Shown here: positions 9,045 to 35,302 of the stretch, one piece after another
How positions within the stretch are numbered: position 1 is the stretch's first letter
Layout: every line of letters begins with the position of its first letter
Source: an uncultured bacterium
Lineage (GTDB): Bacteria > Oederibacteriota > Muellerivitia > Muellerivitales > Muellerivitaceae
Length of the DNA stretch: 64,000 bases
Reading direction: 5' to 3'
NCBI GenBank assembly: GCA_964624625.1
Contig: CAZUXW010000003.1
Location: forward strand, 1,728-65,727
Position numbers and translations under genes: made by a program
Notes under the pieces: model-generated
The model's input: only the letters and a program-made list of their open reading frames with translations
Database searches by the model: none
What the model was told of the DNA's origin: nothing

Positions 9045-9350
9045 CTACCGTTGGGCCATGCGCTTTTTGACGCTTTTGACTTTTTCTTCCATGGTTTGGC
9101 TGCGGTCGATTCTGGTTCCAAACTTCAAGGTCGTGGTGATGCGGGGCGCCCCCATTTGATGGACCACCTCATGGCAGCGCTTAATCGCCTTGAAGACTTT
9201 ATCCCAATCGCCCTCAATATTGGTGCCATAGGCGTGAAGCTGGATCTTTAACCCGGCTTTTTTCAGGACCTTCTCGCAGGCCGCCACGTACTCGGAAACC
9301 GAGACGCCTACGCCCAAGGGTATAACACAAAGATCAGCGATGACTTTCAT
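9045..9350 (-). CDS. MTH1187/YkoF-family protein (DUF77, thiamine-binding-like)
   Basis: 101 aa. MKVIADLCVIPLGVG...YVAAC N-terminus and size match the family. AGGGAGG RBS upstream. Confidence 0.6.
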   Translation of the reverse strand: MKVIADLCVIPLGVGVSVSEYVAACEKVLKKAGLKIQLHAYGTNIEGDWDKVFKAIKRCHEVVHQMGAPRITTTLKFGTRIDRSQTMEEKVKSVKKRMAQR

Positions 9351-9450
9351 GCCGAGCCTCCCTTCGAAAAATATCCTGTGTGGTTGGTATAGTCCCGATT
9401 ATTCCTCGAATTTATCCCCTTTGAGAATTGGGACATAGCGACCTCCTTCG

Positions 9451-10881
9451 TCAAAAAGGAAATTTCAAAAACCCGGCGACGAGGCTTCCCGCTGCGCAAA
9501 GAATAAAAGCGAGGGGCAAGCCGAGGGAAAGGGGCAACAAAGCCGGTTCCTTCCCTTCCAAGGGCCTCATATAAAGATACACCACCACCCTTAAATAATA
9601 GTAGGCGGAGATGAAACTATTGAGGACCGCGACCACCGCCAGCCATAATAAACCGTGATCGACCGCTAGTTTAAAAAGGAAGTATTTACCAAAGAACCCG
9701 GCTGTGGGCGTCATCCCGGCCAGGGAAAACATAAAAACCGCCATGGGCAGGCCCATCCAAGGCTGGCGCAGCCCCAAACCCCGGATATCCTCGATCTGGG
9801 TTTTGGTTTCGCTTTGGCCGGCGGACCAAGCGATCCAGCCAAAAGCGCCGGCGGTCATAAGGGTGTAAGCCAAAAGATAAAATGCCACGGCCCGCTCCGT
9901 CTCATCGGCCGGGGCCAGGGCGGCGGCCGACAAACCCACCAATAGATAGCCCGCGTGGGCCACGCTGGAATAGGCCAGCATGCGCTTCACGCTGGACTGT
10001 CCCAAGGCCCCCAAGTTGCCCAAAGTCATCGTGAGGACCGCCAAGACCACTAAACACCAGGACCAGCTTCCGGGAAGGCCGAAAACTTCCGTGAAAATCC
10101 TGGCGAAGGCCCCAAAGGCCGCGGCCTTGACGCCGGTGGAAAGAAATGCCGACACCGGCGCGGCGGCTCCGTCATACACGTCGGGGGCCCATCCGTGGAA
10201 TGGAACAAGGGCCACCTTAAAACCCAAGCCCACCAAAAGAAGCGCCGCCCCCAACTCCACGAAAAGGGAACGGGTATTCCCCTGTTCCAAAAAATGCCGC
10301 AATTCGGAAAAATGGGTCGTGTGGGAGGCGCCGTAGAGCAACGCGATCCCGTAAAGCAGGAAAGCCGAGGCGAAAACTCCCAGCATGAAATATTTCAGGG
10401 CCGCCTCGGTGGACCTTTCCTGGACGCGGAAATACCCGGCCAGAACGTACCCCGCCAGCGACATCAGCTCCAATCCGACGAAAAGGGTTAAAAATTCCGC
10501 CGCCAGCACCAACGTCAACATCCCCGCGGTTCCCATCAACAACAAGGCGTAATATTCGCCGGTAACGGCTTTTTCCCGCCGCAAATAGCTGGAGGAAAAA
10601 ACGCAGGTGAGCAGGGCGGACAGGAGGCAGATGCCCCCCATCGTCAGGGAATAGAGATCCACCACGACGGCGCCGTGAAAAAGCGGTCCCGGCATGCCCG
10701 AAACGGATAAAAGACGAAAGGTCGCGCCCAAGGCCAGCGCCAAAAAGGTTCCCGTCAAGAGGGGGGCGGTCTTTCGTCCCTCTTCTTTTAAGGTGACCTC
10801 CAGCAACAAAAGAAACAGGGAGCCGGCCGTGACGATCCAAAGGGGGAGCAACGCTGTTAATTCGGTTGGCAGTGAAAACAT
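9451..10881 (-). CDS. nuoN: NADH-quinone oxidoreductase subunit N
   Basis: 476 aa polytopic antiporter-like subunit. Last gene of the nuo cluster; family-typical length and position. Confidence 0.9.
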   Translation of the reverse strand: MFSLPTELTALLPLWIVTAGSLFLLLLEVTLKEEGRKTAPLLTGTFLALALGATFRLLSVSGMPGPLFHGAVVVDLYSLTMGGICLLSALLTCVFSSSYLRREKAVTGEYYALLLMGTAGMLTLVLAAEFLTLFVGLELMSLAGYVLAGYFRVQERSTEAALKYFMLGVFASAFLLYGIALLYGASHTTHFSELRHFLEQGNTRSLFVELGAALLLVGLGFKVALVPFHGWAPDVYDGAAAPVSAFLSTGVKAAAFGAFARIFTEVFGLPGSWSWCLVVLAVLTMTLGNLGALGQSSVKRMLAYSSVAHAGYLLVGLSAAALAPADETERAVAFYLLAYTLMTAGAFGWIAWSAGQSETKTQIEDIRGLGLRQPWMGLPMAVFMFSLAGMTPTAGFFGKYFLFKLAVDHGLLWLAVVAVLNSFISAYYYLRVVVYLYMRPLEGKEPALLPLSLGLPLAFILCAAGSLVAGFLKFPF

Positions 10882-10997
10882 GGTTAACCTTTTTTATCTT
10901 TTCTTGAGGATTTCTTGCGCCAGTGAGGGGTTAGAAGTTTTCGACTTCCCCCATCCTTGGTTTTTCAACTCCTAACCACTAACTTCTAAATTACTAA

Positions 10998-12530
10998 CTA
11001 TTTTTTCTTTTTGCCTTTTTCCACTTCTTCCTGAAGTCGCCGCTGTTGGGCGGCGAAATCCGTCATCGTGGGCGGCGGCTTGAGCTTTTCAATGACGCTC
11101 ATTTGCAGGGTTTTTTCCATCGGCCTGAGGAAAAAATTGGGGTTAAGGCCGATCCAAAGGACGGCTAGGACGAGGGGTAATAGGGCCAGTCCCTCGGTCC
11201 AGGAAAGGTCAGGGACGGATTGATTTTCTTTCTTTTTCACGGGCCCGAGGAAAACCTTGCCGTAGAGGTTAAAAAGATACCAGGCGGAGAGGACAAACCC
11301 GGTGATGGCGGTCAAGGCCAGCAGGGGTGCGCTCTTATAAACTGCCACCAGGATCAATATCTCGCCGGCGAACCCGGCGAAACCAGGAAGGCCCGCCGCC
11401 GCCAGCATCATCCATAGAAAAGCCGTGGATAGGACTGGAACGACCTTTGCCATTCCGCCGTAGGAATCCATCTCATGGGATTGGCGCCGTTGGTAAAGCA
11501 TGCCCATCAAAAGGAAAAGACCCGCCATGTAAACACCGTGGCTGATCATTTGAAGAACGCCGCCTTGAAGCCCGGTCAAGGAAAAGGTGAAGATGCCCAG
11601 CACGATCATCCCCATGTGGGATAAGGAGGAATAGGCGGCCAAACGCTTAAAGTCCGTTTGGATCGAGGCCATGAGGGCTCCATGCACCACCCCGGCCAGG
11701 GCCAACACCATGATCCAGGGGGCGAAATCCTTGGCCGCGTTGGGAAATAAGGGAACGCAGAATCGCAAGAGGCCATAGGCTCCCAATTTCACCAGGACCG
11801 AGGACAACATGACCGTAGCCCCGGCGGGGGCCTCCGTATAGGCGTCCGGCAGCCATCCGTGAAAGGGAAAGAGTGGAATTTTGATAAAGAAAGCCAGGCC
11901 AAAGGCCAAAAAACACCAGAATTGGACGTCCTCCGGGAAAAAATGCTCGAAGATCTTGGCGTACTCGAAGCTCTTGACCTCATGCGTCACGTAAAGAAGC
12001 GCGACCAGCATCAGGAGGGACCCCAACATCGTAAAAAGGACGAACTTGACCGTGGCCTTGACCCGGTTCGGGCCTCCCCAAACCCCGATCAGGAAAAAAG
12101 CGGGGATCAACATGAGCTCCCAAAAGAGATAGAAAAGGAATATATCCGTCGAGGCCAGGGTCCCCACGACCGAGGATTCCAGAAGAAGAAGGCAGGCGTA
12201 AAAACCCCGGACATTTATTTCAACCGCTTTGAAGCTGGCCAGAAGAACCAAAGGCGTCAGAAAGGTGGTTAAAAGAATCAGCCAAAGGGAGAGGCCGTCG
12301 ATACCCAGGCTGTAATGGATGCCCAGGGAGGGAACGAGCGGGGCCTGTTCCTTGAACTGAAATCCCCCATCCGAGAGGTCGAATCCGTTATAAAGGGCCA
12401 GGGAAAAAACAAAAGTGATGAAGGCGACCATGAGCGACAAGGTCTTCGCGGCCTTAGCCTGGGGAAAAAGGGCGACCAACAGGGCTCCCGATAACGGCAA
12501 ACCGATGAGTATGGATAAAATCACTTTCAA
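10998..12530 (-). CDS. nuoM: NADH-quinone oxidoreductase subunit M
   Basis: 510 aa antiporter-like subunit, with conserved gene order after nuoL. Confidence 0.9.
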   Translation of the reverse strand: MKVILSILIGLPLSGALLVALFPQAKAAKTLSLMVAFITFVFSLALYNGFDLSDGGFQFKEQAPLVPSLGIHYSLGIDGLSLWLILLTTFLTPLVLLASFKAVEINVRGFYACLLLLESSVVGTLASTDIFLFYLFWELMLIPAFFLIGVWGGPNRVKATVKFVLFTMLGSLLMLVALLYVTHEVKSFEYAKIFEHFFPEDVQFWCFLAFGLAFFIKIPLFPFHGWLPDAYTEAPAGATVMLSSVLVKLGAYGLLRFCVPLFPNAAKDFAPWIMVLALAGVVHGALMASIQTDFKRLAAYSSLSHMGMIVLGIFTFSLTGLQGGVLQMISHGVYMAGLFLLMGMLYQRRQSHEMDSYGGMAKVVPVLSTAFLWMMLAAAGLPGFAGFAGEILILVAVYKSAPLLALTAITGFVLSAWYLFNLYGKVFLGPVKKKENQSVPDLSWTEGLALLPLVLAVLWIGLNPNFFLRPMEKTLQMSVIEKLKPPPTMTDFAAQQRRLQEEVEKGKKKK

Positions 12531-12601
12531 ACCCCTTTTTGATTAGGGGCCAGGTTCAAGGTTCCAGCCGGAACCTGAGACCTTGACCCTGAAACCTGCC
12601 C

Positions 12602-14584
12602 TTAATGCAGCATCAAATAAATCAACAGCCCCGCGCCGGCGACCACGTAGGCCAGGTAAACCCGGACCAAACCCACTTGGAGTTTTTTTAATATCCCCGC
12701 CAGGGCGTAGAGGCCCCGGGTCAGGGCCTCGAGGACCCGGTTGATGAGCAGCTGCTCCACCAGTTTGTCCGAAATCCAATAGGCCAACCCCTTCACCCAT
12801 TTCACCACGGTGAGTTCATAAAGCTCGTCCACGTAATATTTTTGCTCGATGACTTTTTTCCCGCCGGGAATAAGCTTGAATATCCTCTGGCTCAAAACGT
12901 GTTTCAATCCATAAACATACCAAGCCACTCCCGCGCCCAATCCCGCCACGAGAAAGGACATCAGCATCAATAGGGGCTCCATTTTCTTGGAGACGCCGTC
13001 CGCTTCCAGGGTCGAGAGATGGAAGAGAGGGTCCAAAAACTTCCCCAGCGCGTTGCCTCCCCCGATGGCCTCGGGCATGCCGATCCAGCCGGAAACCAGC
13101 GAGCCGATCCCCAAAACAAACAAGGGAATGGTCATCCAACGGGGTGATTCGTGCAAATGCCCGAAGACTTCCTTGTCGCCCCGGTACTCGCCGAAAAAAA
13201 CCAAAACGACCAGGCGGGTCATGTAATAGGCCGTGAGAAAGGCCGTCGCCAGGGCGGTAAAATAAAGAAGCTCCGGCAAAAGCGGAAAGACTGCGTTGGG
13301 GGTGGCTAGGGCGCGCCAAAGGATCTCGTCCTTGCTGTTGAATCCCCCGCAAAGGGGCAATATCCCGGAAATGGCCAGCCATCCCAAAAGAAAGGAAAGG
13401 CTGGTAAGGGGGATATGCTTTAAAAGGCCTCCCATTTTGCGGATGTCCTGCTCCCCCTTCATGGCGTGGATCACCGATCCGGCCCCCAGGAAAAGACAGG
13501 CTTTAAAAAATCCATGGGTAATCAAGTGAAAGATTCCGGCACTGTAGGCGCTGACGCCAACCCCCAGGAACATAAAGCCCAGCTGGGAAATCGTGGAGTA
13601 GGCCAGGACTTTCTTGATGTCGTTTTGCGTCACCGCGATCGTGGCCGCCAATAGCGCGGTCAAGACCCCGATGACCGCCACCACCATGGAAGCCCAAGGC
13701 GCGAGCACGAAAAGGAAATGCAGGCGCGCCACCAGGTAAACGCCCGCCGTGACCATGGTCGCGGCATGAATGAGGGCGGATACAGGCGTGGGGCCCGCCA
13801 TGGCGTCAGGAAGCCAAACATAAAGGGGAATCTGGGCGGACTTCCCGGCTGCCCCAAAAAAGAAGCAGAGGCAAACGATGGTGGCCGAGAGATTGCTAAA
13901 CACCATTTTGTGGGCTTGAAGATCGTTGAAATTAAAGGTTCCGGCCAGGGCGAAGACCATGAGCAGGCCCGCCAGGAACCCGGCGTCCCCGATTCGGTTG
14001 ACGATGATGGCTTTTTTACCAGCGTTGGCCTTGGCCTCGTCCTCAAACCAAAAACCGATGAGGAGGTAGGAACAAAAGCCGACCCCCTCCCATCCCAGGA
14101 ATAAAACCAGCAGGTTTTGGGCCATGATCAGAACCAACATGGAAAACAAAAACAGATTCAAATAGGTGAAGTAGCGGCCAAATCCAGGGTCATCCTTCAT
14201 ATAACCAATTGAATATAGGTGGATCAAGCTTGAGACAAATGTGATGAAAACCACCATCACCAGGGAGAGGGAGTCCAATTGCAGGTTCATTTTAACCTGG
14301 AACGAACCCGCGTCCATCCAATCAAAAAGATCCTCCACCAAAATACTGTTGTCGGGCAATCCGTTGAAATGAAGAAAGGTAAACCAGGCCGCGATAAAGG
14401 ATGCGATCGCGGCTCCGCAGGCGACCGTGGCGTAAAGGGCCCGGGGAAAGGCAGGCTTCCCGCGGGAAGCGGTGAGCGTCAATAATCCGTTGACGGCCGC
14501 CCCGATCAGGGGGGCCACGGCGATCAACCAGATCCAATCAAAGTTGATCAGGGCTATGTTTTGAAAATGTTCCAATTTCAGCAT
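12602..14584 (-). CDS. nuoL: NADH-quinone oxidoreductase subunit L
   Basis: 660 aa antiporter-like subunit with a long C-terminal extension. GAGG RBS 5 nt before the ATG. Confidence 0.9.
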   Translation of the reverse strand: MLKLEHFQNIALINFDWIWLIAVAPLIGAAVNGLLTLTASRGKPAFPRALYATVACGAAIASFIAAWFTFLHFNGLPDNSILVEDLFDWMDAGSFQVKMNLQLDSLSLVMVVFITFVSSLIHLYSIGYMKDDPGFGRYFTYLNLFLFSMLVLIMAQNLLVLFLGWEGVGFCSYLLIGFWFEDEAKANAGKKAIIVNRIGDAGFLAGLLMVFALAGTFNFNDLQAHKMVFSNLSATIVCLCFFFGAAGKSAQIPLYVWLPDAMAGPTPVSALIHAATMVTAGVYLVARLHFLFVLAPWASMVVAVIGVLTALLAATIAVTQNDIKKVLAYSTISQLGFMFLGVGVSAYSAGIFHLITHGFFKACLFLGAGSVIHAMKGEQDIRKMGGLLKHIPLTSLSFLLGWLAISGILPLCGGFNSKDEILWRALATPNAVFPLLPELLYFTALATAFLTAYYMTRLVVLVFFGEYRGDKEVFGHLHESPRWMTIPLFVLGIGSLVSGWIGMPEAIGGGNALGKFLDPLFHLSTLEADGVSKKMEPLLMLMSFLVAGLGAGVAWYVYGLKHVLSQRIFKLIPGGKKVIEQKYYVDELYELTVVKWVKGLAYWISDKLVEQLLINRVLEALTRGLYALAGILKKLQVGLVRVYLAYVVAGAGLLIYLMLH

Positions 14585-14609
14585 GCAAACCTCAAACTTA
14601 AATTTTGAA

Positions 14610-14716
14610 CCACAGAGTGAACAGAGTTACACAGAGTAAGGCAATACAAGGCATTCTGAACGTTAGTGCTTAATAAAATTCTTGTCTTACTCTGCGTAAC
14701 TCTGTTCACTCCGTGG
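14610..14716. repeat. 107-bp dyad: 31-bp inverted-repeat arms around a 45-bp loop, between nuoK and nuoL
   Basis: Arms: ccacagagtgaacagagttacacagagtaag (14610-14640) and cttactctgcgtaactctgttcactccgtgg (14686-14716). The two arm differences are G-U wobbles in the minus-strand (nuo mRNA-sense) RNA and C-A mismatches in the other sense. Confidence 0.7.
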
Positions 14717-14723
14717 TTGATGA

Positions 14724-15041
14724 TTATCCTTTAAGACTTTTGAACAAATCCAAATCCACCGTTTCTTTTATACGGAAAAGCGCGATCACGATAGCCAGTC
14801 CCACGCAGGCTTCCGCCGCCGCCACCGCCACCACGAACAAAACGAACACATGGCCCGTCAAATCCCCGTTCACTCGGGAAAAAGTAACGAAGGTAAGGTT
14901 GACCGCGTTCAACATCAGTTCCAAGGACATGAGGGAAACGAATAAATTCCTGCGGGTCAAGACTCCCGCGATCCCAATGGCGAACAAAATGGCCGAGAGA
15001 ACGAGATAATGGGTCGGCGAAACAGGGTAAAGCAAATCCAT
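14724..15041 (-). CDS. nuoK: NADH-quinone oxidoreductase subunit K
   Basis: 105 aa with three TM segments, [16 protein letters not shown] motif. Confidence 0.9.
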
Positions 15042-15094
15042 TTCAAATCATCCTTTTTGAACTAATTTACGAATTCCGCATCCCGAAAGGTTAA

Positions 15095-15130
15095 TTGGTC
15101 CTTTCAAAGCTTCCGCTTTGAAAGGACCAA
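15095..15130. repeat. perfect 15/16-bp stem hairpin that overlaps the 3' end of nuoJ
   Basis: TTGGTCCTTTCAAAGC ttccg CTTTGAAAGGACCAA. The last nuoJ codons (..LVLSKRKL*) are encoded by the loop and the distal arm; the proximal arm is immediately 3' of the stop. Confidence 0.7.
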
Positions 15131-15619
15131 GGCCCCCACTACCGCCGCCAAGAGGAGCAGGGAAAGCATTTCGAACGGAAATAAATAATCCGAAAAAACC
15201 TTCATTCCGACAGCTCCAATGCTTCCAAAATCCTCCGGAATGTCGGCGAACTTCCATTGGCCCGAAGGAAAAACCACCAAAAACAGCGGGCCCAGCGCGC
15301 CTCCCAATACCAATAACAAAACCGCCGGGATCATAACGGCCCGGGCCTTTAAGGGCCTCAAGTCCTCCGGAGCCAGGTTCAATAGCATGATGACGAAAAT
15401 CACCAACACCATAATGCCGCCGGCATAAACCAGGATCTGGATGATCGCCGCCAGGGAAGCGGATAACGTGGCGTAGAGGGCGGCCAAAGCCACAAAGGCC
15501 CCCACCATGGACAGCGCGGACCCAATGGGGTTGGTGCGGGTGATCACCAATAACCCGAAGCCCAACAACAGGGCGGCTAGGATGTAAAAGACGGCGGCTT
15601 CCAACAAGTGATGCTCCAA
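15104..15619 (-). CDS. nuoJ: NADH-quinone oxidoreductase subunit J
   Basis: 171 aa hydrophobic, in conserved position between nuoI and nuoK. Confidence 0.88.
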   Translation of the reverse strand: MEHHLLEAAVFYILAALLLGFGLLVITRTNPIGSALSMVGAFVALAALYATLSASLAAIIQILVYAGGIMVLVIFVIMLLNLAPEDLRPLKARAVMIPAVLLLVLGGALGPLFLVVFPSGQWKFADIPEDFGSIGAVGMKVFSDYLFPFEMLSLLLLAAVVGALVLSKRKL

Positions 15620-15744
15620 GGATGGATTAGTAGTCAGGAATCAGGAATTTTGGAAGATTCTCATTTGAATTTCGCAAATGAAAATCACCTTATTTCCCTT
15701 CCAAACTACGACTGAATGCCTCTTTCCTAATTTCCAATTACGAA

Positions 15745-15775
15745 CGCCCCATGCCAAGCCTATGGCTTGGCATGG
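15745..15775. repeat. perfect 14-bp stem hairpin that overlaps the 3' end of nuoI
   Basis: CCCCATGCCAAGCC tat GGCTTGGCATGGGG. The nuoI stop codon lies in the loop and the final codons (HGPHAKP) are in one arm. Confidence 0.7.
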
Positions 15776-16305
15776 GGCCCGTGCGTCCAAATCACCGGCC
15801 GCGGCGGATTATATTCCGGCACGATATCTTTATTGTCATGGTCCATCAAAAATTCCTTGCCATAAACCAAGCTGTCCCTGGTGTAGCCCGCGATGGCGAT
15901 TTCCGGCACATCCATCCGGATGGCGTCCAAGGGGCAGGCGTCCACGCAAAAACCGCAGAAAACACAGCGAAGCATGTCGATCTCGAATTTTTCCGGCAGT
16001 TTCTCCACGTTCGGGTCGGCTGATTCAGCCGCCTTAATATGGATGCACTCTGCCGGGCAGGCGGTGGCGCACAACATGCAGGCCGTACAACGGGGCGACT
16101 CATCCTCCCTCTTCATCAGGCGGTGGCGTCCCCGGGTGGTCGGCGGCAGGGCCTTCTTTTGTTCCGGAAAAAAAATTACCGGCATCCCCTTGGGATTCAT
16201 TAAATTCCTCAAGACATGACCCATCGTCACGAGGAGCCCCTTGAGGACTTCGCCCAGGTAGAGCTTTTGGGAACCTGTCATTTCAGGCCGCTCAACAATT
16301 TTCAT
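15760..16305 (-). CDS. nuoI: NADH-quinone oxidoreductase subunit I (2 x [4Fe-4S])
   Basis: CTACMLCATACP and CVFCGFCVDACP motifs. Start reassigned to the internal ATG (MKIVERPE..., 16305) because the ORF-finder start (16374) would overlap the nuoH 3' end. Confidence 0.88.
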   Translation of the reverse strand: MKIVERPEMTGSQKLYLGEVLKGLLVTMGHVLRNLMNPKGMPVIFFPEQKKALPPTTRGRHRLMKREDESPRCTACMLCATACPAECIHIKAAESADPNVEKLPEKFEIDMLRCVFCGFCVDACPLDAIRMDVPEIAIAGYTRDSLVYGKEFLMDHDNKDIVPEYNPPRPVIWTHGPHAKP

Positions 16306-16345
16306 AAAACCCCTATTTTTACCTTTTCTGCGTCTCTGCGGCAAA

Positions 16346-17656
16346 TCATTGTTTTTGGACCAAAATAAAAACACCCGTCACCAGCAAATTCAGCAGCGCC
16401 AAAGGCAGCATCAGCTTCCATCCCAGGTTCATGAGCTGGTCGTAACGGAACCGGGGCATGGTCCAACGCACCCACACGAAAAGCCAGCAGAAAAAGAGGA
16501 CTTTGATGAGAAGGCAAATCATTTGCAGCAAGGCCGTTAATACACCAGGGGCCCAAACCGGCAAGGCCACAAAATGGGAAAAGACCAGCAGGCCCAGTGA
16601 CATACCGGCCCCGCCGAAACCCACGGCTGAGAATATGAAAGGTTCCCAGCGTTTCATCCCAGTATGCAGAACTTTTTGATCCAAGGCGCTTAAATAGAGG
16701 ACCCTTCCCAGGAAACCGCCGGCCAAGATCCCCCCCCCGCACAACAACAGGAGGGTCAATTGGGGTTTTTGAAGAAGAACTTGAGTCGGGGCAAAGGGAA
16801 CCTGGTAGCCGCCCAAAAATAAGGTTGAAATCAAAAAGGCCGCCACCACCATGTTGGAGTACTCGGCCATGAAGAATAAGGCGAACTTCACGCTGGAATA
16901 TTCGATATGGTAACCAGCCACTAATTCGGATTCACCCTCGGCCAAGTCAAAGGGATTGCGGTTGGTCTCGGCGAAAGAGGCCACCAGGAAAAGAAAGAAG
17001 CCCACCGGTTGGAGAAAGATCCCCCAATGGGGGAAGGGAAGGGTGTGGCCCGCCAGGGTCAAAAGCCCTCCTTGGGTCTCCACAATCGCGTCCACTTTCA
17101 CGCCTTGGAACACCATCAAAAGCCCCACCACGGACAGGCCCATGGATAATTCATAGGAAATCATCTGGGCGGAGGAACGAAGCCCTCCCAAGAGGGAAAA
17201 TTTGTTGTTCGAGGCCCAGCCCGCCAGGATGACCCCAAAGACCCCCATGCTGGTAATCGAAAGAATATAGAGGACCCCCACGCTAAAGTTCGCGGCCTGG
17301 AACCGGAGGCTGTGGCCGGCGACTTCCATGGGCGCGGCCAGGGGGATGATCAACAGCGGCAGCAGCGAAACCGTCATGGACCAAAAGGGCGCCAGCCAAT
17401 AATAAAAACCATTGGCGTGGGAGGGCGTGATGTTTTCCTTCATCAGGAGTTTGATGACATCCGCGAAGTTATGGACCATTCCAAATAAGCGGACGCCAAA
17501 AATTTCCGCCCGGTTGGGCCCGATTCGGTCCTGAATGATGGCGCTTCCCTTCCGCTCCAGCCAGATGAAAAATGGGATGAATTGGAGCGGTGTCAACCAC
17601 ATGACCACCGTCATGACCGCGATATTAATTAGGGTAAAAAGGTGGTTATCCAACAT
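16346..17656 (-). CDS. nuoH: NADH-quinone oxidoreductase subunit H, with a ~80-90 aa extra hydrophobic segment
   Basis: 436 aa against the usual 320-350. Conserved EYSSVKFALFFMAEYSNM... region, followed by an additional hydrophobic segment (..LLLLCGGGILAGGFLGRVLYL..VGFGGAGMSLGLLVF..) before the C-terminal helices. Confidence 0.85.
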   Translation of the reverse strand: MLDNHLFTLINIAVMTVVMWLTPLQFIPFFIWLERKGSAIIQDRIGPNRAEIFGVRLFGMVHNFADVIKLLMKENITPSHANGFYYWLAPFWSMTVSLLPLLIIPLAAPMEVAGHSLRFQAANFSVGVLYILSITSMGVFGVILAGWASNNKFSLLGGLRSSAQMISYELSMGLSVVGLLMVFQGVKVDAIVETQGGLLTLAGHTLPFPHWGIFLQPVGFFLFLVASFAETNRNPFDLAEGESELVAGYHIEYSSVKFALFFMAEYSNMVVAAFLISTLFLGGYQVPFAPTQVLLQKPQLTLLLLCGGGILAGGFLGRVLYLSALDQKVLHTGMKRWEPFIFSAVGFGGAGMSLGLLVFSHFVALPVWAPGVLTALLQMICLLIKVLFFCWLFVWVRWTMPRFRYDQLMNLGWKLMLPLALLNLLVTGVFILVQKQ

Positions 17657-17791
17657 GAACCTCCAACATTTTCACCCCAGGTCCCTTGGGGACCATCAAG
17701 ACAGGATTAAAGACGGTTGATATTAAACCAAGGACTTTCTTAACGGTGCCCTCCGGGGTCCCAAAGGGACCTGTGGTAACTGGTTTGCGTT

Positions 17792-19417
17792 TCATTCTTT
17801 CGCTTTCCCCAATACGTTCGGTTGGGATTTGATGCCCTGGAAAGGCTCAGCCGCGGCCGGCGGAAGATCCAATACCTTCCCCGCGGAAGGTATCGAACTA
17901 AAAGTTAACCCGTTCAAAAGCGGGACTTCCTTGGCCATGGCGTTGAACACGGCGGGAGTGTCCTCAAACTCAAACCCCTCTACCTTCAAGGCTTTCGCCA
18001 AACGGCAAATCCACATGGAAGCTTCCACCACATCCGGATTCTCAGGCTCAATGGCCTGCTTGAATTTTTGCAGGCGGCTGGTGCCGTTGACGAAAGTTCC
18101 GTTCTTTTCCGTGAAGGGACGGACGGGAAAAAGCATGGATCCCAGCTCCGCGACTTTCGTTTGATGGACCGACAGCACGATCAAGGCGTTCACTTTTCCA
18201 TAAACCTTCTTGGCCCTTTCCTCGTCCTGGCCGAAAGGATTGTTGTGCATCATGATGACGACCTTAATGGCGCCCTTTTCAATTTTGGCGAGCAGTTCTT
18301 TTCCCTCGGGATCAATCCCCAACAGTTTCAACCCTTGCGCGTTAGGGGTCTTGTCCGGCAGTTTAAGGATAGGGTCCCCGGCCCCCGGTTTGCCCCAGAA
18401 AGGAGCGGCCAGGTTTTTGACGTTGAATCTTTTCTCGAAAAGTTTCTTCAAAAGATAGTTGTCCTCCAGGGCCGCGGCAGGGGACGCGATTCCGGCCACT
18501 TCCTCCCGGGACAGGGCCTCGAGTATGTTCGCCAAGGAATCGATCCCCTTGGCCAGCGTGCTGATTCCGTGGCCTAGGCGAACTTCCGTGACCCGGTTGG
18601 TTTGGTAATAGTCGTAGGAAAACCTTCCCTCATCGCAGATCCAGGTCTTATTGAGCTCCGAGTTGTCCCTCGGCATGAAGCGGAAAACCTTTCCCTTATT
18701 ATGCTCCACCGTGATGTTGCATCCCCTCGCGCATCCAGGGCAAATGGAATCGGTTTTTTTGAGGAACCAGACCCTTTGCTTAAATCGGAATTCCTTGAGG
18801 GTCAAGGCGCCCACCGGACAAATGTCGGTCACATTGCCCGAGTAGGCGTTATCCAAGCGGCGGTCCGGGAAGGTGGTAATGGTGGAGGCATGGCCTCGAT
18901 TCACAATGCCCAGCTCGGACGTTTTCGGGACCTCATCCACGAAACGGATGCAGCGGGTGCAAAGCACGCAGCGTTCCTGGTCCAGGATAATATGCTCCCC
19001 GATATCCTCCGCCTTGCCGCCCTTGAAATCCCGGGGCACGCCGCGCCGGAAATCATAGAGGCCGTATTCCATATATTGGTTCTGGAGCTTGCACTCCCCC
19101 GCCTTGTCACAGACCGGGCAATCCAGCGGATGGTCTAATAAAAGGAATTCCAGGGCCGACTTTTGGGCGGCCTTGGCCTTAGGGGTTAGGGTATGGACCA
19201 CCATTCCCTCGGAAACCTTGGTATTGCAGCCAACGGTCAACATCGGACCCTTGGGCCCTTCGATCTCCACCATGCAGGTCCGGCAATTGCCGGCCACCGG
19301 CAGGTAGCGCTGGTAGCAAAAGTGCTCGAGGGGAATATGGTTGGACAAAGCCGCTTCCAGAACGTTGGTTCCGTCGGGCACTTCCATTTGTTTTCCATCG
19401 ATGGTGATTTTCGCCAT
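17792..19417 (-). CDS. nuoG: NADH-quinone oxidoreductase subunit G (short form)
   Basis: N-terminus MAKITIDGKQMEVPDGTNVLEAA..CYQRYLPVAGNCRTCMVEI is the 2Fe-2S ferredoxin fold, followed by a 4Fe-4S Cys-rich region. Start taken at ATG 19417. Confidence 0.88.
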   Translation of the reverse strand: MAKITIDGKQMEVPDGTNVLEAALSNHIPLEHFCYQRYLPVAGNCRTCMVEIEGPKGPMLTVGCNTKVSEGMVVHTLTPKAKAAQKSALEFLLLDHPLDCPVCDKAGECKLQNQYMEYGLYDFRRGVPRDFKGGKAEDIGEHIILDQERCVLCTRCIRFVDEVPKTSELGIVNRGHASTITTFPDRRLDNAYSGNVTDICPVGALTLKEFRFKQRVWFLKKTDSICPGCARGCNITVEHNKGKVFRFMPRDNSELNKTWICDEGRFSYDYYQTNRVTEVRLGHGISTLAKGIDSLANILEALSREEVAGIASPAAALEDNYLLKKLFEKRFNVKNLAAPFWGKPGAGDPILKLPDKTPNAQGLKLLGIDPEGKELLAKIEKGAIKVVIMMHNNPFGQDEERAKKVYGKVNALIVLSVHQTKVAELGSMLFPVRPFTEKNGTFVNGTSRLQKFKQAIEPENPDVVEASMWICRLAKALKVEGFEFEDTPAVFNAMAKEVPLLNGLTFSSIPSAGKVLDLPPAAAEPFQGIKSQPNVLGKAKE

Positions 19418-19440
19418 AAATCCTAAAACCTCATTTTCAC

Positions 19441-19525
19441 CACCAAGGCACCAAGGGGCCAAGAAAGGCTTTTAATTCCGCCCTTTCCGGTAAATGATTT
19501 TCTTGGTGTCTTGGTGTCTTGGTGG
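19441..19525. repeat. inverted tandem 8-mer repeats in the nuoF-nuoG spacer
   Basis: 2 x CACCAAGG (19441-19456) face 3 x TCTTGGTG (19501-19524). Nested GGTAAATGATTT / GGTAAATCATTG dyad. The nuoF stop codon is at 19536-19538. Confidence 0.6.
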
Positions 19526-19535
19526 TAAATCATTG

Positions 19536-20816
19536 TTAAGACACCTTTTCCGGAACCGAAACCGCCGTCGGCTTGCAGTACTTTTCAAAATCCTCCCGGA
19601 ACTTTTTGATGAAGCTCCGCACCGGGAAGGCCAGGGCGGAGGAGAAGACGCAGATAGTCTTGCCTTCCATGTTGTCCGCGATTTCCAGCATCAGGTCCAA
19701 TTCCTTGGCCGCGGCTTCCCCCGCGAGGATTTTCTTGAGGATCCTGTCCTCCCAAGCGCTCCCTTCCCGGCAGGGCGTGCATTGGCCGCAGGACTCGTCC
19801 CGGTAGAAATGGGTCAGGTTCTTGAGGATCTTGGCCATGTCCGTATGCTCGTTCATGATGATGGCGCAGCCCGTGCCAAACATGGTCTTGTGGTCCCTCA
19901 TGCTCTCGTAGGAGAGGGTCAAGTCCTCGCACTCCTTCGCGGTCAATACCGGACAGGAGGATCCGCCGGGAATGACGGCCTTGAGCTTGCCGCCCTTAAC
20001 GCCCTTGCCGTACTTCTCGATAAATTCCATCATGGGAAGGCCGAAGGGCATTTCCCAAAAGCCGGTTTGGTGGACGTGGCCCGAAAGCCCGAACACATGG
20101 GTACCGGGAGATTCCTTCGTGCCGATAGCGGCGTAGGCCGCGGCGCCATTTTCAATAATCCAGGGAACCGAGGACAGCGTCTTCACGTTGTTCACAATGG
20201 TGGGGCAGCCAAAGGCCCCCACGATGGCCGGAAAGGGCGGCTTGATGCGGGGCTGCCCCTTTTTGCCCTCGAGTGATTCCAGGAGCCCCGTCTCTTCCCC
20301 GCAGATGTAGGCTCCCGCTCCCCGGTGGACATAAACTTCCAAATCAAAACCTGAACCCTGGATATTTTTTCCGAGATAGCCGGCTTTTTTAGCGTCCTCA
20401 ATGGCGGCGTTCAAACGGTTGATCTGCTCCAAGAATTCGCCCCGGACGTATATATAGGAAGTGTGGCATCCAATGGCGTAACTGGCGCAGATGATTCCTT
20501 CGAGCAGCAAATGAGGGTCGTAGAGCATCATGAAGCGGTCGGTGAAGGTTCCCGGTTCACCCTCGTCGGCGTTCACCACCAGGTAAACAGGTTTTCCCGT
20601 GTTTTGTGGGACAAATGACCATTTCATGCCAGCCGGAAAACCCGCCCCGCCACGGCCCTTCAAACCCGAGGACTTCACTTCCTCGATTACCTCGGCGGGT
20701 TTTTTGGCGAAAAGATTTTTTAAGGACGCGTATCCACCCGTCTCCAGGTAGACCTTGAGTTGGTGGCCGTCCTTGGTTTCAAACCGCCTGGTGAGTTGAG
20801 GTTGAAATTCGGCCAT
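19536..20816 (-). CDS. nuoF: NADH-quinone oxidoreductase subunit F (NADH/FMN/4Fe-4S)
   Basis: GRGGAGFPAGMKW FMN/NADH motif and C-terminal CGQCTPCREG 4Fe-4S motif. Confidence 0.92.
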   Translation of the reverse strand: MAEFQPQLTRRFETKDGHQLKVYLETGGYASLKNLFAKKPAEVIEEVKSSGLKGRGGAGFPAGMKWSFVPQNTGKPVYLVVNADEGEPGTFTDRFMMLYDPHLLLEGIICASYAIGCHTSYIYVRGEFLEQINRLNAAIEDAKKAGYLGKNIQGSGFDLEVYVHRGAGAYICGEETGLLESLEGKKGQPRIKPPFPAIVGAFGCPTIVNNVKTLSSVPWIIENGAAAYAAIGTKESPGTHVFGLSGHVHQTGFWEMPFGLPMMEFIEKYGKGVKGGKLKAVIPGGSSCPVLTAKECEDLTLSYESMRDHKTMFGTGCAIIMNEHTDMAKILKNLTHFYRDESCGQCTPCREGSAWEDRILKKILAGEAAAKELDLMLEIADNMEGKTICVFSSALAFPVRSFIKKFREDFEKYCKPTAVSVPEKVS

Positions 20817-21296
20817 TTATTTCTTCCTCAATTCTTCGATCAACTTCTCGGTGCTTTGGGGGGTCAGGTTCTCGTGATAGTCGTCGTTCACCTGCATGCA
20901 GGGCCCCGTGTGGCAGGAGGCCAGGCATTCGACCGGTTGATAACTGAATTTCCCGTCGGGCGTTGTCTCGCCTGGTTTTAAATCGAGCTTCTTCTCGATC
21001 ACCTTTTTGATTTCTTCCGAGCCGTTTAAGAGGCAGGAAATGGTTTGGCACACCTGAAGATGGTACTGTCCGGGCTTTTTCTTTTGATACATGGTGTAGA
21101 ACTCGGCAACTTCCATCACCTGCATGGGGGAACAGCCCACCAGTTCGGACACAGCCACCATGGCGTCGGTGGAGATCCAGCCGAATTCCCTTTGGGCCAG
21201 CCAAAGGGCCGGAAGGAGCGCGGCCCGGCGCAAGGGATAGCGCTTGGCAATAGCCTCGAACTCTTCCAAGGTTTCTTTTTTGAACTGTACGGCCAT
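20817..21296 (-). CDS. nuoE: NADH-quinone oxidoreductase subunit E (2Fe-2S)
   Basis: 159 aa. CQTISC...ECLASCHTGPCMQVN thioredoxin-like ferredoxin motif. Directly abuts nuoF. Confidence 0.9.
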   Translation of the reverse strand: MAVQFKKETLEEFEAIAKRYPLRRAALLPALWLAQREFGWISTDAMVAVSELVGCSPMQVMEVAEFYTMYQKKKPGQYHLQVCQTISCLLNGSEEIKKVIEKKLDLKPGETTPDGKFSYQPVECLASCHTGPCMQVNDDYHENLTPQSTEKLIEELRKK

Positions 21297-21389
21297 TTCG
21301 AATTCCCTTTTCCCAAGTTAGAAGTTAGGAGCGAGAGGTTGGGAGTTTTGAACTTCTCACCGCCAACTCCTCACTCCTAATTGATTTTT

Positions 21390-22634
21390 TCAACGGTCCA
21401 GTTCGCCCGCAATGATGTTGATCGACCCCAAATTCGCAACCGCGTCGGCGATCATCGTCCCCTCGATCATGGTGTGGTAAGCCGCGAAATTCATGAAACA
21501 GGGGGGCCGGCACTTGATACGGTAGGGATTCTTCGATCCGTCCGAGACAATCGTAAAACCCAATTCCCCATTCGCGGCCTCGGTGGCGTCATAGACCCGC
21601 CCGGGCTCGGGACAAATGCCGTGCATGATGATCTTGAAGTGATTCATCAACCCTTCGATGTTTCCGTAGGTCTGCTGTTTGGGAGGAAGCGCCACCCTCT
21701 TGTCGTCCGTCATGACCGGACCGTTGGGTAATTTCCCCAGGGCCTGCTCGATGATGTGGATGGATTCCTCGATCTCAAGAAAACGTATGAAAATGCGGTC
21801 GAAAATATCGCCCCGGCTTCCCACAGGAACGTCGAATTTAAAGTCCTCATAATGGTAATAGGGCTCGGCTTTGCGCAGGTCGTACTCAACCCCGCTGGCC
21901 CGAAGCGTCGGCCCCGTCCAGCCGTAGGAAATCGCCTTCTCTTTCGAGATAACGCAAATATCCTTGGTGCGGTCGAGGAAAATCCGGTTTTTGGTAACCA
22001 GTTTCTGAACATCCAAAACACCTTTTCGTATTTCTTTCAATACCGCCGTGACTTCCGCGCCGAAAGCCGGATAAACATCGCGCGAAAGGCCCCCGATGCG
22101 GGTATAGCTGGACGTCAAGCGCGCTCCGCAAAGCTTTTCGAGAATGTTGTAAACCTTTTCCCGCACGTTGAAGGAATACCAGAAATTGGTAAGGGCGCCG
22201 ATATCCACGAGGTTCGCGCCGGCGCAAACCAAGTGGTCAATGATGCGGTTGAGCTCGCTGGTGATGACCCGGATGTAAATCGCCCTTTCCGGAACCTGAA
22301 TATTCATCATGCGCTCCACGGCCTTGCAGAAGCCCACGTTGTTCATGATGGCGGATACGTAATTAAGCCGGTCCGTGTAGGGAATGCATTGCTGGAAGGT
22401 ATGGACCTCGCAGTCCTTCTCAAAACCACGGTGCAGGTAGCCGATCTCGGTGACCGCCGCCACGATGGTTTCGCCGTCCAGGGCGCAAAGCGCCCGCAAG
22501 GTGCCGTGGGTCGCCGGGTGGCTGGGTCCCAGGTTCACCATGACCAGGTCCTTTTTCTCAAGGGATTGAACCGAGTTCAATCCCCGGGAAGAGGACTCGA
22601 CAGGTAGTAAAGTTTTCGTGTCGATCGCATTCAT
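21390..22634 (-). CDS. nuoD: NADH-quinone oxidoreductase subunit D
   Basis: 414 aa; N-terminus ..MVNLGPSHPATHGTLR and C-terminus ..AGELDR are typical of NuoD/49-kDa subunits. Confidence 0.92.
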   Translation of the reverse strand: MNAIDTKTLLPVESSSRGLNSVQSLEKKDLVMVNLGPSHPATHGTLRALCALDGETIVAAVTEIGYLHRGFEKDCEVHTFQQCIPYTDRLNYVSAIMNNVGFCKAVERMMNIQVPERAIYIRVITSELNRIIDHLVCAGANLVDIGALTNFWYSFNVREKVYNILEKLCGARLTSSYTRIGGLSRDVYPAFGAEVTAVLKEIRKGVLDVQKLVTKNRIFLDRTKDICVISKEKAISYGWTGPTLRASGVEYDLRKAEPYYHYEDFKFDVPVGSRGDIFDRIFIRFLEIEESIHIIEQALGKLPNGPVMTDDKRVALPPKQQTYGNIEGLMNHFKIIMHGICPEPGRVYDATEAANGELGFTIVSDGSKNPYRIKCRPPCFMNFAAYHTMIEGTMIADAVANLGSINIIAGELDR

Positions 22635-22686
22635 CGTTTTTCCTCTTTAATAACGCCGACTTTCAATGACAAATGGTTAACCCGCG

Positions 22687-23229
22687 TCAAACGTAGCCCT
22701 TTTCCTTTAAGCGGACTTCCATCTCGTCCATCAGCGACTCATTCATGGAAAGCGCCTGGCGGCGGGTGATGGGATAGTCTTTCCGCAGGGGATGTCCCAC
22801 GAACTCATGGTGGTTTAAAAGCCGCTTCAAGTTGGGATGGCCGGAGAAACGGATACCCATCTGGTCGAAGGCCTCCCTTTCCAGCCAATCAGCGTTGGCG
22901 TAAAGGGTGGTGAGGCTCGGCACCACCGGCCCGTCCTCGGGGGCGGTCAGGGAGAGTTGAATTCGGTGGCCATGGCCCAGGGATTTCAAATGATAAATCA
23001 CGCCGAACCTCTCACCGGTCCATCCGGAAAAGGCCGAATAGTCCACAGAGACGATATCCACGAGCATGTCGAACTGAAATTCCGGGTCATCCCGCAGTAT
23101 TTTCACCATGCCGGCGAGCTGGGCGCGGTCCACCTGGACCTCCAGGGCGCCAAAACGATCCGCCGAACCAAGAATGGCTTGGGGGGTTTTTTCTTTCAAT
23201 TTTTCCAATAGCGCCGAGAATTCCATCAA
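22687..23229 (-). CDS. nuoC: NADH-quinone oxidoreductase subunit C
   Basis: 180 aa, 30-kDa subunit family, in conserved position. Confidence 0.85.
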   Translation of the reverse strand: MMEFSALLEKLKEKTPQAILGSADRFGALEVQVDRAQLAGMVKILRDDPEFQFDMLVDIVSVDYSAFSGWTGERFGVIYHLKSLGHGHRIQLSLTAPEDGPVVPSLTTLYANADWLEREAFDQMGIRFSGHPNLKRLLNHHEFVGHPLRKDYPITRRQALSMNESLMDEMEVRLKEKGYV

Positions 23230-23349
23230 AACCTCCCACCTTTCACCCCATGCCGCCTAAGGCAGATCGCAAAGTTGCGGTTCGAAAAAATATTTTCCAT
23301 TTCCACCCAAAGGCCTTTGTCCAGCTGTGACTCCGTGGTGAAAAGGTTG

Positions 23350-23855
23350 TTAATAATCAAACTTCGGTTCCTTTGCCATGAACTGCGCCGCCGGCGTCGT
23401 TCCCGGATTCTCGATCTTGTGCTGGAGCTTCATCACCGCCGTCAAAATAGCTTCCGGCCTGGGGGGGCATCCGGAAATGTACACGTCCACCGGGATGATC
23501 TGGTCGATGCCCTGCACCGTGCAATAGTTGTTATAAAACCCGCCCGAGGAGGCGCAGACGCCCATCGAGATCACCCACTTGGGCTCGCACATCTGCTCGT
23601 AAATTTGTTTCAGGATGGGGGCCTGCTTGAAGGTGACGGTCCCCGCGACCAACAAAAGGTCCGATTGCCGGGGGGAGAAACGCACCAACTCGGCTCCGAA
23701 CCGGGAAATATCAAACACCGAGGAAACCACCCCCATGAACTCGATCGCGCAGCAGGCGGTTCCGAAGGGCATGGGCCAGAGGGAGTTCTTTTGCCCCCAG
23801 GCGATGACAGCGTCCTTGCGGGTGGTGATGGCCGGAAAAGTTTCTACTCCCATTC
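23350..23855 (-). CDS. nuoB: NADH-quinone oxidoreductase subunit B
   Basis: Start at the internal ATG (MGVETFP...). Conserved [17 protein letters not shown] and GCPPRPEA motifs. The longer ORF-finder version would overlap nuoA. Confidence 0.9.
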
Positions 23856-24221
23856 CAAGGCCCCCCTTTTCCAGAGGTAAAACCAACCAAAGGCCAGGAC
23901 GCCAAGGAACCCCAACATTGAAAGGAACCCGCCCCAAGCCATTTTTTGGAACAGCACCGCCCAGGGAAAGAGAAATACGATCTCGACGTCGAATACCAGG
24001 AAGCACATGGCCACCAGGTAAAATTTCACGTTGAAACGGTGGCGGGCGTCCCCCGTAAGGGCGCTGGATTGGATTCCGCATTCGTAAGGGGAAAGCTTCG
24101 TTTCGTTGTCCTTGCGGGGTCCTAGGGCCTTGGATAACAACAGCATGGCCGCCGGAACCGCCATGGCGAGGAAAAGGGAAAGAACGATGGGAAGTAGGTT
24201 TTCAATCAGCTCGAAATTCAC
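23844..24221 (-). CDS. nuoA: NADH-quinone oxidoreductase subunit A
   Basis: Start taken at GTG 24221 ([13 protein letters not shown]...), with GGAGG 6 nt upstream. Conserved KLSPYECG motif. The upstream ORF-finder extension has no family counterpart. Confidence 0.85.
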
Positions 24222-24332
24222 GCTTAGCCTCCGGTCAACGCTTAAGCTTTCACCCGGAAGTAAGGCTGGTTTGGCGGGGGGCAATGGGTGAAATTAGAGC
24301 GAATTATAAGGAGTTTTAAACCATTTGGTCAA

Positions 24333-24348
24333 TGTGAAATATTTCACA
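24333..24348. promoter_or_regulatory. perfect palindrome TGTGAAATATTTCACA (CRP/FNR-family consensus TGTGA-N6-TCACA), site 1 upstream of nuoA
   Basis: Exact 16-bp palindrome, ~120 bp upstream of the nuoA GTG. Confidence 0.6.
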
Positions 24349-24414
24349 AACTATTCATTTTTAGGCCTCAAATTCCCGAATTTTGAGGCCTATCCGTCCT
24401 TTTCATAAAATAGA

Positions 24415-24430
24415 TGTGAAATATTTCACA
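24415..24430. promoter_or_regulatory. second identical TGTGAAATATTTCACA palindrome, site 2
   Basis: Identical 16-mer 82 bp from site 1 (centre to centre). The hairpin AGGCCTCAAA ttcccgaa TTTTGAGGCCT (24363-24391) lies between them. Confidence 0.6.
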
Positions 24431-24470
24431 AGCCCTGGTAGGCCGCCTGGATCCCCCACAAGGATTAGGC

Positions 24471-24498
24471 AAAAAAAAGGCCCGGGGGCTCCCGGGCC
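24471..24498 (-). terminator. rho-independent terminator of the upstream OMP gene
   Basis: Minus-strand RNA: GGCCCGGG agcc CCCGGGCC followed by U8 (plus-strand A8 at 24471-24478). Confidence 0.7.
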
Positions 24499-24528
24499 TT
24501 GGTGCATTTTTAACGTCCTGACTCCCTA

Positions 24529-35232: not shown

Positions 35233-35302
35233 TCCAGTTTAAACAGAAATGAGCAATTCGAAATTTTAAAGGATCCAATTCCCAACTCCTAATTCCGCAT
35301 TC

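Follow-up and report, generated by a model that had tools for sequence, protein, structure and literature searches.

Hairpins at the junctions of the nuo operon in a candidate division FCPU426 bacterium are likely copies of small palindromic repeat families

Introduction

What are the hairpins that fill the spaces between the genes of an essential operon, and do they belong to its design? The question is raised by a 64,000-nt stretch of DNA from an uncultured bacterium (contig CAZUXW010000003.1, positions 1,728 to 65,727), here called the window, in which the nuoA-N operon for complex I occupies 9451-24221 of the minus strand and inverted repeats stand at most gene junctions. A first reading of the letters (hereafter the sequence-only reading) took these dyads for determinants of RNA processing or stability, or for a family resembling the repetitive extragenic palindromic (REP) elements, that could allow differential expression of complex I modules. 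In this study, we compared the operon with eleven related nuo loci (pieces of about 20 kb, designated by L numbers), tabulating every junction. The junction hairpins likely belong to several families of small, palindromic and non-autonomous repeats, of the type of REP and of miniature inverted-repeat transposable elements (MITEs), that colonised nuo spacers in some FCPU426 lineages. Their membership in repeat families, the polymorphism of their insertion, the co-variation of their arms, the slippage of their units and their clustering in nuo are documented below.

Results

All 14 nuo genes were found in canonical order from open reading frames (ORFs) and translations, and the expected Pfam families lie on the nuo genes of six identical metagenome contigs, as expected from the sequence-only reading. 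Placement of NuoH assigns the host to candidate division FCPU426. The genes are as follows.

nuoA, 23844-24221, minus strand
nuoB, 23350-23856, minus strand
nuoC, 22687-23226, minus strand
nuoD, 21390-22634, minus strand
nuoE, 20817-21296, minus strand
nuoF, 19536-20816, minus strand
nuoG, 17792-19417, minus strand
nuoH, 16346-17656, minus strand
nuoI, 15760-16305, minus strand
nuoJ, 15104-15607, minus strand
nuoK, 14724-15041, minus strand
nuoL, 12602-14584, minus strand
nuoM, 10998-12479, minus strand
nuoN, 9451-10881, minus strand

Two junctions are free of a spacer, A/B, where the genes overlap, and E/F, where they abut; the remaining eleven have spacers of 40-152 nt, which are long for nuo operons of the FCPU426 lineage. 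Because six independent assemblies carry the same nuo-region sequences at 99.8-99.96% identity, an assembly artefact was ruled out as the source of the hairpins.

Across the window and its relatives, 22 junction elements of the main family, about 100-130 nt long with extremes of 83 and 151 nt, are built on one plan. The window holds three members (F/G, K/L and G/H) and two remnants, a lone 5' arm at H/I and a decayed copy at B/C. The 5' end reads (T)TTACCRC or CCAAC and the 3' end GYGGTGAAA or GTTGG; each arm is a tandem run of about three CRCNRAG(N) units of 8-10 nt, with complementary units opposite, the apex is often AAGTAAGGC, and the loop is AT-rich, unconserved and variable. In an 18-sequence alignment of the 29-pair hairpin, 87% of cells are paired, and shifting the partner columns by 1-3 positions lowers this to about 42%; compensatory change is seen in 17 of the 29 pairs, and the observed covariation was reached by none of 500 shuffles. 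The unit word varies from copy to copy (CACCAAG, CGCCAAG, CGCGAAG, CACAGAG, CGCCACG and others) and is mirrored on the opposite arm; at variable positions, identity among the units of one copy is 0.87, against 0.57 across copies (0 of 5000 permutations). Whole units also come and go: metagenome copies have two to five per arm, and in L004, which belongs to the same species as the window, exactly one 9-nt unit, ACTCTGTTC, is lost from the K/L 3' arm (14619-14627), leaving the stem unbalanced. This is the sole indel inside the operon among six same-species contigs, and a search of these contigs for compensatory change returned that one-unit deletion and a few substitutions only; because they are 99.8-99.96% identical, the strain comparison is uninformative on this point.

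The related loci are of two kinds. Five operons (L007, L093, L094, L009 and L090) are compact, with gaps mostly of -16 to +27 nt, many of them overlaps of stop and start codon (TAATG or ATGA); larger measured spacers occur at L/M (55-205 nt) and at two other junctions (54-71 nt). The L/M spacers of compact loci mostly reflect the chosen nuoM start, that of L090 being a real insert, and except for a low-scoring match there to R1, our covariance model of the main family, no junction hairpin was found in the five compact loci. The other six (L087, L088, L091, L089, L092 and L008) are expanded and hairpin-filled, with a different mosaic of filled junctions in each. On a neighbour-joining tree of NuoH-N, (WIN, L087, L088), L091, (L008, (L009, (L090, L092))), L094, (L093, L089), with WIN the window sequence and L007 the outgroup, compact and expanded operons are interleaved, and therefore at least three or four independent colonisations are counted, in the WIN/L087/L088 clade, L008, L092 and L089.

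Close pairs differ in the same way. L090 and L092 share 92% protein identity in NuoH-N, and eight junctions (B/C to H/I, and J/K) are filled in L092 and empty both in L090 and in the next relative, L009, a contrast that would represent a recent burst of insertions. F/G and G/H are filled in the window and empty in its closest relative L087, whose F/G spacer is 17 nt, and at M/N the family is 2 in the window, 1 in L087 and 3 in L088. The hairpins are thus lineage-specific gains, and not a conserved nuo feature, because L090 and L092, like the window and L087, differ in which junctions are filled.

Traces of the insertion itself are seen in these comparisons. Neighbouring junctions carry copies that are near-identical up to and including the start of the loop (F/G and G/H of L092, D/E and F/G of L088), and B/C and C/D of L092 hold one element, near-identical, in opposite orientations. 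At filled junctions of L092 the old overlap of L090 is duplicated around the insert: TAATG at F/G has become TAATG...AAAATG, with AATG duplicated, and ATGA at G/H has become ATGA...ATGG, with ATG(A/G) duplicated. The F/G element of the window is flanked on both sides by AATGA, of which L087 has a single copy. Terminal inverted repeats round a non-coding core (in MITEs of about 100-400 nt) and filled and empty sites between close relatives are general features of MITEs, and both are found here.

The repeats are not confined to nuo or to FCPU426. R1 finds only the three nuo copies in the 64-kb window; among the relatives, L094 has a copy outside nuo in its 6PGD/OMP spacer and L090 one downstream of nuoN. 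Elements with the same ends and units are present in nuo loci of Bacteroidota, for example at B/C in Flavobacteriales L048 (TTTTACCACAGAGACACAGAG...CTCTGTGGTGAAC) and in L047, at G/H in Chitinophagaceae L077, and in Sphingobacteriales L040, all found with R1. A pattern scan of JGI metagenome contigs, requiring three CCAAG-type units, gave at least 120 stretches, and complete R1 hairpins occur in about 40 of the 80 loci examined from these, including unrelated operons: sufS and sufB are separated by two copies in tandem, a further copy follows sufC, and another separates msrQ from msrP. Of the metagenome copies whose neighbouring ORFs could both be called, 12 lie between co-directional, 10 between convergent and 2 between divergent genes. 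Like REP elements, the copies are numerous, dispersed and intergenic, with a bias to gene 3' ends. Of the two marks by which the sequence-only reading would have recognised a generic repeat, dispersal over many unrelated loci is there, and absence of bias to gene ends is not. Its suggestion of a REP-like family is upheld by conserved ends, presence or absence junction by junction, at least 120 unrelated metagenome loci and occurrence in a second phylum.

Other hairpin types (TTAGGAG, GTTTTGA, CAGGT and GTCATTGCGAGG) recur in several FCPU426 and Bacteroidota loci. In the window no Rfam family matched at gathering thresholds, with chance-level hits only at E <= 1 in 9300-24600; a full-text search found no paper containing the unit sequences, and the literature on heptameric or tandem-repeat hairpins and on MITEs and RNase III gave analogies only, with no description found.

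An inverted-repeat scan of the whole window ranked the dyads at K/L 1st, F/G 2nd, G/H 8th, the nuoJ stop 12th and the nuoI stop 16th. Folding z-scores were computed against 200 dinucleotide shuffles per junction or stem. The elements, with main-family members labelled family 1, are listed below.

14603-14722, minus strand, K/L family-1 element: arms 14601-14644 and 14682-14725, 44 nt, 86% complementary; z -9.4; R1 61.3 bits
19433-19531, minus strand, F/G family-1 element: 39-nt arms 19436-19474 and 19491-19529; z -5.3; R1 68.1 bits
17668-17782, minus strand, G/H element with family-1 ends TTACCACAGG...CCTGGGGTGAAAA: z -2.6
15746-15778, minus strand, nuoI-stop hairpin: arms 15746-15760 and 15764-15778, 15 of 15 paired; z -5.3
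15095-15130, minus strand, nuoJ-stop hairpin: arms 15095-15110 and 15115-15130, 16 of 16 paired; z -3.6
15630-15709, minus strand, second I/J hairpin of CAGGA/TCAGG-unit type, GTAGTTTGGAAGGGAAA...TTCCTGATTCCTGACTAC: z -2.6
21325-21380, minus strand, D/E family-2 hairpin, of a unit type common to D/E of L087 and L008: z -2.4
12551-12591, minus strand, L/M family-4 hairpin (CAGGGT CAAGGTCT CAGGTTCC ... GGAACCTTGAACCTG): z -2.0, marginal
10915-10995, minus strand, M/N degenerate family-2 remnant (TTAGAAGTTAGTGGTTAGGAGTT ... AACTTCTAACCCCTCAC): z 0.0, chance level
16322-16345, minus strand, H/I half element, a lone family-1 5' arm (TTTGCCGCAGAGACGCAGAAAAGG) whose partner arm is absent: z +0.2
23239-23344, minus strand, B/C degenerate family-1 remnant (TTTTCACCACGGAGTCACAGC ... 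GGGGTGAAAGG): z -0.8
391-475, minus strand, family-2 hairpin outside nuo (AATTAGG-type heptamers, 30 bp), directly downstream of the gene at 478-1470: z -6.1

Strong dyads at most junctions had been claimed, and six of the eleven spaced junctions do beat shuffled sequence at z <= -2.4, compared with one of 21 other intergenic regions of the window, that of 391-475 (Fisher p = 0.003). No excess over the 200 shuffles was found at M/N (0.0), B/C (-0.8), H/I (+0.2) or C/D (+1.9); B/C carries a full element in L092, against the remnant in the window. Hairpins of similar style lie outside nuo at 391-475, 2296-2360, 35244-35305 and 49679-49714.

The K/L element starts 5-6 nt after the nuoK stop and has ends AACCAC...GTGGTT; its three 9-10-nt units per arm, CACGGAGTG / AACAGAGTT / ACGCAGAGT, contain (A/G)GAGT and form a stem of about 36 bp with an AT-rich loop. 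The sequence-only reading had the element right and its length (107 bp) short, the true value being about 120 nt. At F/G the layout is TTTACC-(CACCAAGA)x3 ... (CTTGGYG)x3-GGTGAAA, that is, the inverted tandem units described earlier, three per arm. The arms of the G/H element (17674-17694 and 17757-17777) are 21 nt long and 90% complementary, and both reported copies of GGTCCC-N3-GGGACC lie inside them, one palindrome in each; the element matches R1 weakly (18.6 bits, E = 0.26). At D/E, tandem heptamers TTAGGAG/TGAGGAG/TTGGCGG/TGAGAAG make up the 5' arm and CTCCTAA-type units the 3' arm. The inverted repeats proposed for D/E and M/N thus hold at D/E, whereas the M/N dyad, TTAGAAGTT, is a degenerate remnant; the L/M dyad, with arms of CAGGT-type units that are also found at L/M in L008, is present, but its folding excess is marginal.

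As claimed, the last codons of nuoI and nuoJ are themselves one arm of perfect stems. At nuoI the 5' arm is formed by the codons for …GPHAKP and the stop TAG lies in the loop; at nuoJ the TGA stop lies within the stem, and this hairpin occurs, among the loci compared, in this species only. The nuoI-stop stem is orthologous in the window and L008, with a compensatory change of CAT/ATG to CAC/GTG between them, and L088 has at its nuoI stop a different 7-bp stem that fits its own different codons. The 3' arm follows the coding sequence, because the stems track the codons in the window, L008 and L088.

A terminator scan and the sequences 3' of the stems gave no U-tract after any junction hairpin, in agreement with the sequence-only reading, and because of this the junction hairpins should not terminate transcription; the class of intrinsic terminators was rejected for them. 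The sole strong stem-plus-U-tract on the nuo strand lies at 24477-24500, upstream of nuoA, and further canonical ones stand at operon ends of the window (about 1520-1550, and 2264-2295). No sigma-70-like promoter better than 9/12 was found downstream of the junction hairpins. Sequestration of the Shine-Dalgarno sequence was rejected too, since the GRGG sequence is outside the stems, whose 3' arms end 20-35 nt upstream of the start codon, and so was the idea that the Shine-Dalgarno sequence is a component of the element, since copies between convergent genes are without the GRGGTTT tail.

Upstream of nuoA, on the minus strand, are two perfect 16-bp palindromes TGTGAAATATTTCACA (24333-24348 and 24415-24430) that fit the CRP/FNR-type consensus TGTGA-N6-TCACA. 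The one proximal to nuoA adjoins the best sigma-70-like promoter of the region, TTGACC-18-TATAAT at 24332-24303, and the pair, with a spacing of 66-67 nt, is kept in L008 and L009 and has a variant sequence in L007. This putative pair of sites is probably the real transcriptional control of the nuo operon.

Several further observations concern the repeats of the relatives and the annotation of these loci. In L008, GTTTTGA/GTTTTAA-unit hairpins at I/J (12040-12330) and J/K (12845-13090) have a GC-rich palindromic element (CCCTCTCCCTTGAGGGGAGAGGG...GGGGTGAGGGTGG...) nested within them, in spacers of 317 and 260 nt; these are therefore insertions into earlier insertions. A longer palindromic repeat with ends GTCATTGCGAGG...CCTCGCAATGAC occupies H/I, I/J or K/L junctions in several FCPU426 species (L088 11950-12080, L092 11320-11440, L008 11340-11460, L091 about 3030-3090) and is also present in Bdellovibrionales and Bacteroidetes loci (L028, L051). 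Inside hairpins, spurious ORFs of 35-49 aa without a Pfam match are called (L088 13040-13177, L089 12601-12708, L092 8109-8258), and nuoE of L092 (6258-6785) is called with 175 aa against 159, its frame entering the 5' arm of the hairpin and reaching a stop in the element loop. In L009 nuoH (10001-11320), the NuoH match ends at residue 291 and continues in another frame, the database protein having 361 aa; a frameshift or an assembly error in the record is likely. In the window, imperfect tandem repeats at 41501-41835, with units such as GTCGGGGTTCTCGTGGGAGTATTGGTGGG, lie inside an ORF on the minus strand (40738-42516) and surfaced in the scan as long G·U-rich pseudo-hairpins; they are probably a repetitive protein domain.

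Discussion

We propose that the ancestral nuo operon was compact and translationally coupled, with overlapping stop and start codons, and that the repeats would have spread into it by copy-and-paste, often into neighbouring junctions. Later evolution would have proceeded through slippage, by which whole units are gained and lost, and through homogenisation of the arms. Surviving insertions would be those that spare the stop upstream and give the next gene a Shine-Dalgarno sequence and start, either left in place or brought in by the element; every copy lies 0-20 nt after the stop and 20-35 nt before the next start, putatively because only such insertions survive. Transcribed within the nuo mRNA, the elements would fold into 15-36-bp hairpins that lack U-tracts and cause no termination, and incidentally they might be barriers to 3' exonucleases or targets of RNase III, by analogy with REP, ERIC and Correia elements. 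Stems abutting a stop codon, such as those of nuoI and nuoJ, may slow ribosome release: Liang, Rudd and Deutscher (2015) reportedly found that REPs within about 15 nt of a stop codon lower expression of the upstream gene through ribosome stalling.

Five points weigh against colonisation by mobile repeats. Target-site duplications are confined to two or three sites, other copies having none. No transposase or RAYT linked to the elements was seen in the 64-kb window and the 20-kb pieces of the relatives. All three R1 matches of the 64 kb fall in nuo, and the comparison of junctions with other intergenic regions gives Fisher p = 0.003, a clustering that is beyond what neutral mobility alone gives; it is consistent with local hopping, with selection for punctuation, or with the use of expanded spacers as safe landing pads, the last being suggested because of the nested insertions at I/J and J/K of L008. 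The nuoI-stop and nuoJ-stop hairpins, built from the last codons of the gene itself, look locally generated and not inserted. Finally, every effect at the RNA level is inferred from analogous elements.

It has to be asked whether the hairpins are kept as adaptive punctuation, cutting the 15-kb mRNA into segments of differing stability or slowing termination at particular stops, and so tuning the supply of complex I modules. We regard this as possible though doubtful. The enrichment in nuo given above (6/11 junctions versus 1/21, p = 0.003), the three or four or more independent colonisations of the same operon (the WIN/L087/L088 clade, L008, L092 and L089), with nuo of Bacteroidota colonised too, and the nuoI-stop hairpin that tracks the coding sequence in three species all speak for it, and stems of 20-36 bp are within the size range of RNase III substrates. 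Covariation of a palindrome alone is no proof of selection on RNA, so the orientation of the elements matters here. When the two arms of each of the 22 nuo copies are aligned with one another, 36 mismatches would form G·U pairs on the sense strand and 18 on the antisense strand alone (p = 0.02), and the AAGTAAGGC apical marker is in sense orientation in 9 copies and in antisense in 1, both counts including related, non-independent copies; a count of G·U against A·C in minimum-free-energy structures (62:17) was dropped as a biased estimator in favour of the arm-to-arm count. This bias and the marker orientation lean weakly towards a constraint on the transcript. By folding energy the sense strand is better in 16 of 24 elements, which is not decisive, and the F/G copy of the window folds better as antisense; R1 scores gave no clear orientation rule among non-training copies and metagenome copies between co-directional genes (about 7:5).

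A role of the hairpins in RNA stability or processing is plausible by analogy, but the comparative data weaken the case for a regulatory design for differential complex I expression: in five relatives the same 14 genes form an operon free of hairpins, with overlapping stop and start codons, and the family at a given junction (M/N above) changes between close species. Moreover, unrelated operons and convergent gene pairs harbour the same elements, both orientations exist (B/C versus C/D of L092), remnants and half elements persist at H/I, B/C and M/N, and one strain tolerates an unbalanced arm.

A second alternative, which we judge unlikely, is that the hairpins arose in place without mobility, a short seed being amplified by slippage and then duplicated in inverted form (template switching), so that their likeness is convergent. 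The deletion of a whole unit in one strain and the homogeneity of units within copies would fit such an origin, as would the nuoI-stop and nuoJ-stop hairpins, which are inverted copies of the last 15-16 nt of their gene, and the B/C spacer, where L009 has a single TCACAG unit and L008 has three TCACGG/TCACAG units that lack a partner arm. However, the ends (ACCRC...GYGGT), the apical motif and the architecture are common to copies at many unrelated loci in two phyla, neighbouring junctions are near-identical including the loop and in one case inverted, and sister species of 92% identity differ by eight whole elements.

It seems improbable, if conceivable, that the tandem-unit hairpins form a distinct, undescribed element class whose unit word is kept in concert by a dedicated mechanism or read by a modular nucleic-acid-binding factor, their repeated capture by nuo in FCPU426 and Bacteroidota being adaptive in that complex I modules would be processed segmentally or paced in translation. 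Intrinsic terminators or attenuators lacking a U-tract, dividing nuo into several transcription units, would account for stable stems directly after stop codons but are most improbable, given the canonical U-tracts at operon ends of the same genome (24477-24500, about 1520-1550, 2264-2295), the lack of a sigma-70-like promoter better than 9/12 after the hairpins, and the loss of distal essential subunits that stopping at eight sites would entail.

Colonisation by several REP/MITE-type families has parallels in known systems. REP/BIME elements (REPINs) of Enterobacteria and Pseudomonas are short imperfect palindromes of high copy number at transcribed, gene-end intergenic sites and rarely in promoter regions, and form hairpins without U-tracts that stabilise the upstream mRNA (PMC3184786, PMC3116915). 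The nuo elements resemble them as palindromes without U-tracts at gene ends, within operons or between convergent genes, and differ in having no GTAG/CGTC head, a length of about 100-130 nt (REP 20-40), arms of concerted tandem units and a host of another phylum. ERIC and Correia elements (CREE/NEMIS) are MITEs of about 100-150 nt with terminal inverted repeats, co-transcribed as hairpins on which RNase III or RNase E acts, and their insertion is polymorphic between close strains (PMC2649163, PMC3184786). Size, terminal inverted repeats, long hairpins and insertion polymorphism are shared with these; there is no sequence similarity, however, the nuo elements have no TA duplication, with AATG/ATGA-type duplications at few sites, and tandem-unit arms are foreign to ERIC and Correia.

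Cyanobacterial STRR, for example at hupS-hupL, are intercistronic hairpins with tandem arms of about 7 nt for which a role in transcript stability or translational coupling has been proposed (PMC2670836). The likeness is one of arm architecture only, since the nuo units are CRCNRAG(N), TTAGGAG, GTTTTGA and CAGGT with a period of 7-10 nt, the ends are conserved, the loop is AT-rich, and the hosts are FCPU426 and Bacteroidota, not heterocystous cyanobacteria. MIRUs, small repeats between operon cistrons in polycistronic mRNA, with filled and empty sites and short direct repeats (PMC3184786), have the same intercistronic habit, but they are direct tandem repeats with small coupling-preserving ORFs and not long hairpins. 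Integron attC sites were rejected: by eye, only the CCAAC...GTTGG subfamily fits the core RYYYAAC...GTTRRRY, most elements ending in ACCRC...GYGGT, and the flanks are a canonical syntenic nuo operon with no integrase adjacent.

Conclusions

In mode of action the elements would be most like REP/BIME, ERIC and Correia, and the mechanism class would be an ordinary one. New here are the tandem-unit arms, whose units are concerted and co-vary, the spread across phyla, and the fact that an essential operon was colonised repeatedly and rapidly. The repeat class is widespread, in FCPU426, in Bacteroidota and in many metagenome contigs from soil and freshwater, although it has no Rfam family and no description was found in the literature. 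Concerted units and co-varying arms make it a good system for the concerted evolution of palindromes. Such hairpins may also seed many "hypothetical proteins" in databases, and can lengthen real ORFs. The natural pairs of filled and empty operons (L090 versus L092, and the window versus L087) allow the effect of hairpins on complex I expression to be measured, and they illustrate that a conserved, essential 14-gene operon can be punctuated by selfish hairpin repeats within a short evolutionary time.

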